Source of the DNA: Octopus vulgaris
Lineage: Eukaryota
Direction: 5' to 3'
DNA: 64,000 nucleotides
Assembly (NCBI GenBank): GCA_951406725.2
Contig: OX597814.1
Coordinates: 215,326,001-215,390,000, forward strand
The notes beneath the pieces were generated by a model. It made no database searches and was not told the DNA's origin. It worked only from the letters and a program-made list of their open reading frames with translations. Positions 12,483-37,995 of this stretch are shown here, piece after piece. The position numbers and the translations under genes are program-made. Within the stretch, counting starts at the first letter, position 1. Each line of letters begins with the position of its first letter.

Positions 12483-13229
12483 TGCAATTACTTTACTAGT
12501 GAAAGGGTTATTGTACAATCTGATCTAAAGAGACCTAATAGCTTTTAAAAAGCTATTTGTATTTCTGACGCTTTTTCTACTGTGTAGAAAATGTTACAAT
12601 CCTATTATTGTGCAAACTTTCCAAAAGCTTTCTGACCATCTCCTTCAAAGAGAGATACGCCTGATGAAATTACTGCTATGATATTGGGAAAATATAACAA
12701 AGTAATCTGTTTAAAAAAAACAGCAACAAAAATCTTAGTAAATAAGCAAATACATATATAAAATTCTTCCAATTATGTATAAATACATTCTTTCATAATT
12801 ATTTTTATTATCTCTATCCAAAGGAAACGAAATCAACTAATAGTATTTGCATCATAGAAAAATAACAGTTAATTGTTTTTTTAATTTGAGTATATGTCTG
12901 GAGAGAGAGAGAGAGAGAGAGAGGGAGGGAGGCTGTCATAGAAATGGAAGACAAAGAAAGTGCCACTGTGACGGTAACAGACAAGTAGTCGAGGCGTCAG
13001 GAATTCGTATCCTATATAAGTTCACAGGCAATATTTAAATCTGGCAAGCTATCTTCAAGTATAATGCCTTGTCTAAATCTTTTGGAGGAATACAAATAAA
13101 TGTTTGTGATGAACCATTGTCTTATCCAGGAGGAGAATTGGCTCTCATCTAACGAAAGCTGAGATGAGCACGAAACATCACACAAGGAAACATTGTGTGT
13201 GCGTGTGTGTGTATATATGTATATACACG

Positions 13230-13660
13230 TGGTCATCTTTCTTTTCTTTCAGGACTGTCTTAAGGACAGCACGTATCCTACCCCTCCCTTCTATCTTTTC
13301 TCTTGTCAAAGAAATATTTCTCCAGTGTTCGCTATTTTACCCTCGTTCTGTTCTAACGACCCTCCATGTTTGTTTCCGTTCGGTTTCCTTCTATGTCTCC
13401 TCTGTCCTGTTTTTGTTCCCAACTTTGACCCTCCAAAAATCCCAAATTTTATTTTGGTACTTATGGGAGCAACTGTCTTCGAAGACTCATATTGTGGTTC
13501 AGTGCTCGAAATGAGGAGTAGATAGACAGCCAACAACTAATGAAGGGCTGTTCTTTATGTTACTTGTCCTATTTTCCATCTGTTTCTCTCGTTGTTTGCG
13601 TATTGAACTCATTTGCTTTCGTATTTCATGCTGTTTACTGTTGGTGACGTTCTGTACCCA
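13230..13660 (+). mobile_element. PLE-type non-coding terminal element ending in a (TA)n tract; carries a permuted HHR
   Basis: 3' end TTTCGTATTTCATGCTGTTTACTGTTGGTGACGTTCTGTACCCAT is related to ends at 44479-44621, 55601-55938 and 56071-56288. Confidence 0.75.
13473..13548 (+). ncRNA. Non-circularly permuted hammerhead ribozyme (Z-Y-X), G5A-mutated copy
   Basis: CTCAT-A-TTGT..GCTC-GAA-ATGAG..ACAA-CTAATGA-A-GGGC; stems III CTCAT/ATGAG, I TTGT/ACAA, II GCTC/GGGC; outer helix CTGTCT/AGACAG. Confidence 0.7.
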
Positions 13661-37768: not shown

Positions 37769-37930
37769 TGGCGCAGGTTTGACTGTGTGGTAAGAAGTTT
37801 GCTTCCCAACCATGTGATTTCGGGTTCAGTCCCACTGCGTGGTGCATTGGACAAGGGTTTTCTACAATACAACCGGTTAACCAGAGTCTTATGAGTGGAT
37901 TTGGTAGACGAAAACAGAAATAAGGCAGTC
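37769..37930 (+). mobile_element. 5' part of SINE family B
   Basis: GGCGCAGG..CTGTGTGGTAAGAAGTTTGCTTCCCAACC..GGGTTCAGTCCCACTGCGTGG; runs into (CTAT)n. Confidence 0.82.
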
Positions 37931-37938
37931 ATCTATCC

Positions 37939-37995
<57 letters not shown>

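Follow-up and report, generated by a model that had tools for sequence, protein, structure and literature searches.

A putative non-circular hammerhead with a predicted helix insertion in its core, near the 3' end of a likely Naiad-type Penelope-like repeat

Within the window (the whole stretch of DNA analyzed, 64,000 nt), a dispersed repeat carries a hammerhead motif whose strands follow the non-circular order S-G-C. We read its first copy as an S-G-C hammerhead mutated at G5 (G5A) and likely dead, lying ~120 nt from the 3' end of a likely Naiad-type repeat and having two further helices, IV and V, in its core, a reading to which we give a probability of roughly 80%. It also seems fairly probable that Naiads across invertebrate phyla carry active non-circular hammerheads, of type CSG in nematodes and, for corals, jellyfish, acanthocephalans, crustaceans and cephalopods, of a new topology in which a stacked helix pair closes a core opened between A9 and G10.1 (five-way junction), and that their in vivo cuts are fossilized as the 5' ends of short insertions.

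The window is AT-rich, microsatellite-laden, non-coding animal DNA, and holds five copies of the repeat:

13229..13660, + strand: copy 1 insertion, the 5'-truncated 3' end of the dispersed repeat, between (TG)/(TA) microsatellites; boundaries approximate
55598..55905, - strand: copy 2 insertion, covered by contigs over its whole span and extending slightly beyond 55905
44479..44625, + strand: 5'-truncated family copy that begins at the stem I 3' strand, with core CUGAAGA and tail, between (TA)n runs
56073..56209, - strand: 5'-truncated family copy starting just upstream of CUGAUGA
56216..56290, + strand: inverted, shorter tail copy adjoining the 5' end of the 56073..56209 copy, a Penelope-like inverted arrangement

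The ribozyme motifs of copies 1 and 2 stand directly 5' of a common ~120-nt tail that ends at (TA)n. When contigs from four public sequencing runs were aligned to the copy 2 stretch, 234-1853 contigs per run matched it, showing that this stretch is a multi-copy repeat. The contigs also contain, at the 55711-55715 region, a large sister subfamily with the same tail and divergence at the core; it has CUGAAGA and an upstream stretch resembling the purine-rich loop of copy 1, and the copy at 44479 is a member. Aligned contigs do not reveal RNA ends or expression, and no accumulation of starts was listed among them. A pattern derived from the tail in the window had no match in a metagenome scan. 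Other dispersed SINE-like repeats ending in microsatellites occur at 1179-1271, 37880-37972, 36166-36359/45734-45927 and 33126-33292/51905-52071, and are ordinary for genomes of the kind seen here; the SINE-like repeats of the window appear similar to octopus ones.

Naiad elements are described as having a (TA)n insertion bias, 5' truncation and inverted truncated copies (Craig et al., 2021, PMC8557442). Among the five window copies there are (TA)n flanks, truncated 5' ends and one copy that is both inverted and truncated, a combination that fits this description and is not unique to Naiads among Penelope-like elements (PLEs). The ORF expected of a Naiad joins an N-terminal GIY-YIG endonuclease to an RT. 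All window copies are short 3' ends, and of the 159 open frames of at least 55 aa, the 148 scanned with Pfam contained no GIY-YIG or RT remnant, giving only six sub-cutoff matches (E 0.003-0.007). Compared by eye with the published octopus Naiads, the window family showed no homology and has a different tail from Naiad_Obim and Naiad_Ovul. Membership is something we infer: the repeat carrying copy 1 is likely a Naiad-type Penelope-like retrotransposon. The first-pass annotation of this DNA had missed that the motif forms the end, on the 3' side, of a Penelope-like repeat, a position that links it with the Naiad clade.

Eckert et al. (2023, PMC10085705) defined the hammerhead blocks S, G and C and validated type SGC, which they drew from metagenomes and metatranscriptomes and reported from no genome of a known organism; block C (stem I-CUGAnGA-stem II) was assumed to be uninterruptible. 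The Z-Y-X order recognized in the first-pass annotation is this published type SGC and is not new in itself. It is present in both long window copies, laid out as follows:

13429..13432, + strand: 5' strand of helix IV (CCCU), partner 13544-13547
13433..13466, + strand: hairpin V, 5 of 6 outer pairs with one A.A mismatch, partly decayed; abuts stem II
13467..13471, + strand: 5' strand of stem II (GAGCA, its first G being G10.1), partner 13503-13507
13473..13485, + strand: 5' strand of the outer helix (13473-80) and purine-rich loop GAAGA
13486..13497, + strand: block S, with stem III strand, U16.1 (13490), H17 (A13491) and stem I strand; predicted cut 13491/13492
13503..13515, + strand: block G, with stem II 3' strand, G12-A13-A14 and stem III strand
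13516..13529, + strand: loop GAGUA and 3' strand of the outer helix
13530..13547, + strand: stem I 3' strand with one bulged A, core CUAAUGA (13537-43, G5A) and helix IV 3' strand (13544-47)
13548..13660, + strand: pyrimidine-rich 3' tail of copy 1, common to the family, stopping before a (TA)n run
55711..55829, - strand: copy 2 ribozyme, intact core CUGAUGA (55723-17), H17 = C55766
Copy 2, - strand: helices I (55765-61/55728-24), II (55791-87/55757-53), III (55771-67/55749-45) and an outer helix of 11 bp
Copy 2, - strand: helices IV (55829-25/55715-11) and V (55824-18/55798-92)

In copy 1, stem III is CUCAU/AUGAG (13486-90/13511-15), stem I is UUGU+GG/CC+ACAA with a single bulged A, GAA lies at 13508-10 and the outer helix is CUGUCU/AGACAG. 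We take AGUA opposite GAA in the 13516..13529 loop to resemble a loop E / bulged-G module. Copy 2 (55711-55786, - strand) has the same order, other stem sequences and a perfect core; all stems differ in sequence between the two copies and pairing is kept in each, as had been pointed out for stems I and III and the outer helix. CUGANGA, GAAA and UH are in register with stems I-III in copy 2 and its relatives, with G5A in copy 1. With a descriptor that allowed any of the six block orders, the window gave two matches and no more, both S-G-C (13486-13548, +; 55771-55711, -) and both at the equal position in the repeat; 12 shuffled windows gave no S-G-C match and two of other orders. The window motif had no Rfam match at gathering score, the Rfam hammerhead models having the circular order; nested folding gave non-significant z-scores (-0.08 to -0.81) and minimum-energy folds from which the hammerhead was absent in every case, with programs that are blind to pseudoknots. 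A dimeric type-I reading was rejected, as stem III is not palindromic and the block order is wrong for it.

For the hammerhead first annotated at 13473..13548, the order, stems I and III, core, outer helix and predicted cut after 13491 (H17 being A13491) stand; the stem II drawn there was not confirmed and is probably wrong, and the motif starts farther upstream. The suggestion that copy 1 is inactive through G5A also fits published data, since the M1 mutation of Eckert et al. (2023, PMC10085705), at the same G, abolished visible cleavage; with G5A and a bulged stem I, copy 1 is likely a dead insertion.

We further investigated the partner of stem II. The strand preceding GAAA forms five Watson-Crick pairs with the strand just upstream of the outer helix in both copies (GAGCA/UGCUC in copy 1; GAAGG/CCUUC in copy 2, with GAAGG at 55791-87). 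The post-core strand pairs farther upstream as helix IV (CCCU/AGGG and CCCCU/AGGGG, respectively), and hairpin V occupies the gap between the 5' strands of helix IV and stem II in both. Helix energies for II and IV together are -17.7 and -20.2 kcal/mol, versus -7.0 and -4.1 for the stem II first proposed. Stem II is probably formed with the upstream strand and not with the post-core strand, and five helices are predicted to meet in the core, which would be open between A9 and G10.1; the inserted helices IV and V were probably missed in the first-pass annotation. As the 5' strands of stem II and helix IV and the whole of hairpin V lie upstream, the motif starts at 13429, outside the interval previously given. 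When the 60 upstream bases were shuffled, in a post hoc test designed once the pattern had been seen, the stem II partner arose in 15/20000 and 164/20000 trials and the whole II+V+IV arrangement in 1/20000 and 10/20000; a looser full descriptor, run window-wide, gave 13 matches in 100 shuffles versus 2 in the window.

In the contigs aligned to copy 2, listed substitutions fall on 0 of the 40 positions of the core and stems I, II and III versus 22 of the 79 others in 55711-55829, a contrast significant among the variants listed (Fisher p = 8e-5) and gone (p = 0.26) if seven further variant entries beyond those listed are all placed in the core; reads with core changes plus other differences may also escape alignment to copy 2. 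The sole variation at H17 among the listed variants is C to U. An A-U pair of the copy 2 outer helix is by majority C-G at both positions in the contigs, as frequencies and not as linkage. Within helix V, no compensating change in the partner strand is listed for those at 55818, 55820 (about 30-39% of depth) and 55822, with the exception of a minority change at 55798.

Naiads have been reported to be without a canonical hammerhead, eight elements carrying the label 'HHR_half_core' (PMC8557442). For 52 of the 54 File S5 consensi of that study (all but Bfor and Cmel), we inspected the final ~420-480 nt by eye. The full architecture of IV, V, II and outer helix with blocks S-G-C was present in nine of these 3' ends (Amil, Aacu, Anas, 3_Chem, 2_Movir, Plae, EuTe, Obim and Ovul). 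They represent six independent lineages: three Acropora, Clytia 3, Morbakka 2, Pomphorhynchus, Eulimnadia and two Octopus. Their post-core strands vary (ACAGUUGC, ACAGAUAA, CCACG, CCUCU, CCCC, UGG, AGGG), and an upstream complement is present for each. The Pomphorhynchus IV and V strands were read only once the model was fixed, and helix IV of the octopus elements (Obim, Ovul) is weak, with just three Watson-Crick pairs. In Naiad_Ovul and Naiad_Obim, the loop that separates stem III from the outer helix fits a standard kink-turn by eye (3-nt bulge, tandem G.A, U.U); a kink-turn as a general feature was rejected, being a misfit in copy 1 and a loose fit in copy 2.

Other consensi depart from this architecture. 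Judging from its sequence, Esco looks like a decayed member of the group. Smim and Ptep have, by eye, the S-G-C order with perfect stems I and III and a stem II that was not assigned; the Smim post-core strand may pair with one just before a local stem II hairpin, tentatively a second way to insert helix IV. Six nematode Naiads (1-3_Nbra, Hcon, Hpol, Asuum) carry, by eye, clean type-CSG folds at the 3' end, in which a long helix joins the flanks of block C; the type-CSG sequences in Eckert et al. (2023, PMC10085705) number only two. SGC or CSG folds account for five of the eight 'HHR_half_core' Naiads, and no such fold was seen by eye within the last ~420-480 nt of the other 34 of the 52. Eleven Naiads (CGi, Sglo, Olur, Tgra, Pmar, 1_Chem, 2_Chem, 1/2_Skow and 1/2_Pfla) have another conserved, base-paired 3' UTR motif at the equal position, with no hammerhead core within the part surveyed; this motif may be another kind of ribozyme or serve as a signal for RT. 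The 3' UTR motifs of the Mgal, Bpla, Mphi, Scon and Mmer Naiads resemble, we presume, twister ribozymes.

A short motif from the Acropora Naiad fetched at least 120 loci with at least 121 matches, most of the loci coming from one assembly; animal genes flank these coral-type loci. Among 29 of 100 long frames in them, Pfam found one LINE-type endonuclease and genes of the host, and no Naiad RT. Second copies, partial and either in tandem or close by, lie at L003:766-952 (-) and L012:4001-4411 and start 3' of the predicted cut. At L040:113-1518 (-), the element is followed immediately on its 3' side by a disrupted LINE-type endonuclease/RT region that is not related to the Naiad ORF. In an alignment of 22 copies extending beyond helix IV, 92.5% of cells pair, with one stem III pair unpaired in 19 of the 22. 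Double changes occur in 5 of 48 pairs (three in IV, one in the outer helix, one in I), resting mostly on two related sequences of a second subfamily, and the search motif itself fixed the stem II 3' strand; in a slid control, 7 pairs were double-changed versus the 5 real ones. Covariation support from this alignment is modest and partly confounded. CUGANGA is kept in 72 of 108 copies.

We then analyzed where the coral-type copies begin, using the 113 of 121 listed matches with at least 60 nt upstream, 111 of them distinct, all ascertained through the motif and belonging to one family. Counting upstream from the motif, with the predicted cut at position 8, 67/111 copies have their 5' end at 0-8 nt, eight of them exactly at the cut; with three ending at 9-10, as expected from chance extension, 70/111 begin at or just 3' of the cut. 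The 5' ends of the remaining 41 are spread over 184 nt, and the sequence common to long copies stops within about 300 nt upstream. The hazard of 5' ends is 8.9% per nt up to position 10 versus 0.75% per nt beyond, and a single change point is best placed at position 8, the predicted cut. Such a step is the pattern that self-cleavage in vivo would give. In the window family, three truncated copies begin 3' of the cut and two long copies extend past it.

Three other explanations bear on these data. In one, the fold with helices IV and V and the upstream stem II is an off state, or makes up one side of a switch that works as a dimer or with the help of protein, and the RNA would have to refold or find a partner molecule to cleave. 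Slow cleavage, aided by dimerization or protein, has been reported for PLE hammerheads, minimal ones working as dimers, and ~37% of the coral-type copies (41/111) derive from templates reaching past the cut; against it, the strand preceding GAAA has no alternative partner in the relatives, and the helices are all intramolecular and mutually compatible, with I and II short (4-7 bp) as suits a pseudoknotted monomer. We consider this explanation unlikely. Slightly less credit goes to an ordinary type-SGC hammerhead, in which the strand that directly follows CUGANGA is the partner in stem II and the complements upstream arise by coincidence. Such a pairing would agree with the intact block C of Eckert et al., and a 4-bp version is possible in both long window copies, the only two to allow this weak downstream stem. 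It needs one or two G.U pairs, however, and is 10-16 kcal/mol weaker than II and IV together; by eye it is impossible in the Acropora, Clytia 3, Morbakka 2, Pomphorhynchus and Eulimnadia Naiads, the coral-type copies that were fetched do not allow it either, and shuffling seldom produces the upstream complements. The GGGC/GCUC stem II of the first-pass annotation is this same pairing, and is probably wrong on the same grounds. A non-catalytic structured 3' signal (RT binding or pausing) or decayed relic, with the pile-up due to RT stalling at helices, is very improbable: truncation 3' of the motif is also common (3 of 5 motif-independent copies) and the core is lost in many copies, but CUGANGA, GAAA and UH are in register across six lineages, and the hazard is high through the linker and the stem I 5' strand, whose partner strands RT has by then copied, and drops exactly at the predicted cut; stalling fits this less well, as the final segment ahead of the cut would have no partner left after RT has moved beyond the 3' strand of stem II.

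We return to the S-G-C hammerhead with helices IV and V in its core, whose three-dimensional fold, catalysis and role we infer from the sequences, the pairings and the pile-up of 5' ends. The predicted fold would run, 5' to 3', as IV5', V, II5', outer5', III-UH^-I, linker, II3'-GAA-III, outer3', I-CUGANGA, IV3' (^, cut). Helices IV and V abut without a spacer and may stack end to end, and this stack would hold A9 (before IV3') beside G10.1 (after V3') across a nick, so that the usual core would form as a five-way junction. The crossing stems I and II have 4-7 bp in all examples, and III with the outer helix makes a long arm broken by a bulge, internal loop or side hairpin; stem III and the kinked outer helix may bend back so that a second junction joins the distal ends of stems I and II, which would replace the loop I-loop II contact. 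Folding would be incomplete until IV3' is transcribed. Hammerheads cleave after H17, and intact copies are predicted to do so. Cleavage of tandem transcripts would release unit RNAs, a putative role in processing the element transcript; RT priming at the tail would copy as far as the 5' end left by cleavage and fall off there, yielding short insertions that start at the cut, and uncut or re-circularized RNA would give longer or tandem insertions. Internal priming has been shown for another PLE, for which insertion in vitro did not need the ribozyme and RNA ends did not map to its cut (PMC11167929).

If the reading is correct, non-circular permutations go from a few hundred environmental sequences to high-copy animal retroelements, hammerhead topology goes beyond the six thought possible, and the statement that Naiads spread without hammerheads is overturned. 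In the published CSG search pattern, stem II has to adjoin CUGANGA (Eckert et al., 2023, PMC10085705), and descriptors of this sort would miss such a topology. The role of PLE ribozymes in vivo becomes testable, because genomic 5' ends step down at the predicted cut, and RNA ends placed in the core instead of a stem may be useful for engineering.

Literature searches, with most subscription papers outside their scope, returned neither non-circular Naiad hammerheads nor a helix pair at A9/G10.1, and main-text passages of a 2026 retrozyme preprint (bioRxiv 10.64898/2026.07.22.740005) make no mention of either. Hammerhead variants with extra helices are attributed to Weinberg 2015 (cited in PMC13725137), in which helix insertion in the core may have its precedent. 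In the core-insertion variants of Perreault 2011 (PMC3088659) the core likewise tolerates insertions there, of 1-2 nt. Canonical PLE type-I hammerheads and animal retrozymes (PMC6765202, PMC11167929, bioRxiv 10.64898/2026.07.22.740005) share with the present family a terminal-repeat hammerhead of a Penelope-like element and a proposed cutting of tandem transcripts, but they have the circular type-I order and minimal stems, often act as dimers and are without helices IV and V. With the Naiads (PMC8557442) the window family has in common (TA)n insertion, 5' truncation, inverted truncated copies and the predicted ribozyme architecture, seen in nine Naiad 3' UTRs; it has no ORF here and a tail unlike that of Naiad_Obim and Naiad_Ovul. 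Closest in fold is type SGC (HRIMA-1 and its variants; Eckert et al., 2023, PMC10085705), with the same S-G-C order, three mutually crossing stems, a short I-II linker and the core nucleotides. There, CUGANGA is joined to stem II and a fourth helix joins the flanks of block C in environmental sequences, while in the fold predicted for the window family helices IV and V interrupt block C, the stem II 5' strand lies upstream, the outer helix extends stem III instead, and the host is an animal retroelement.
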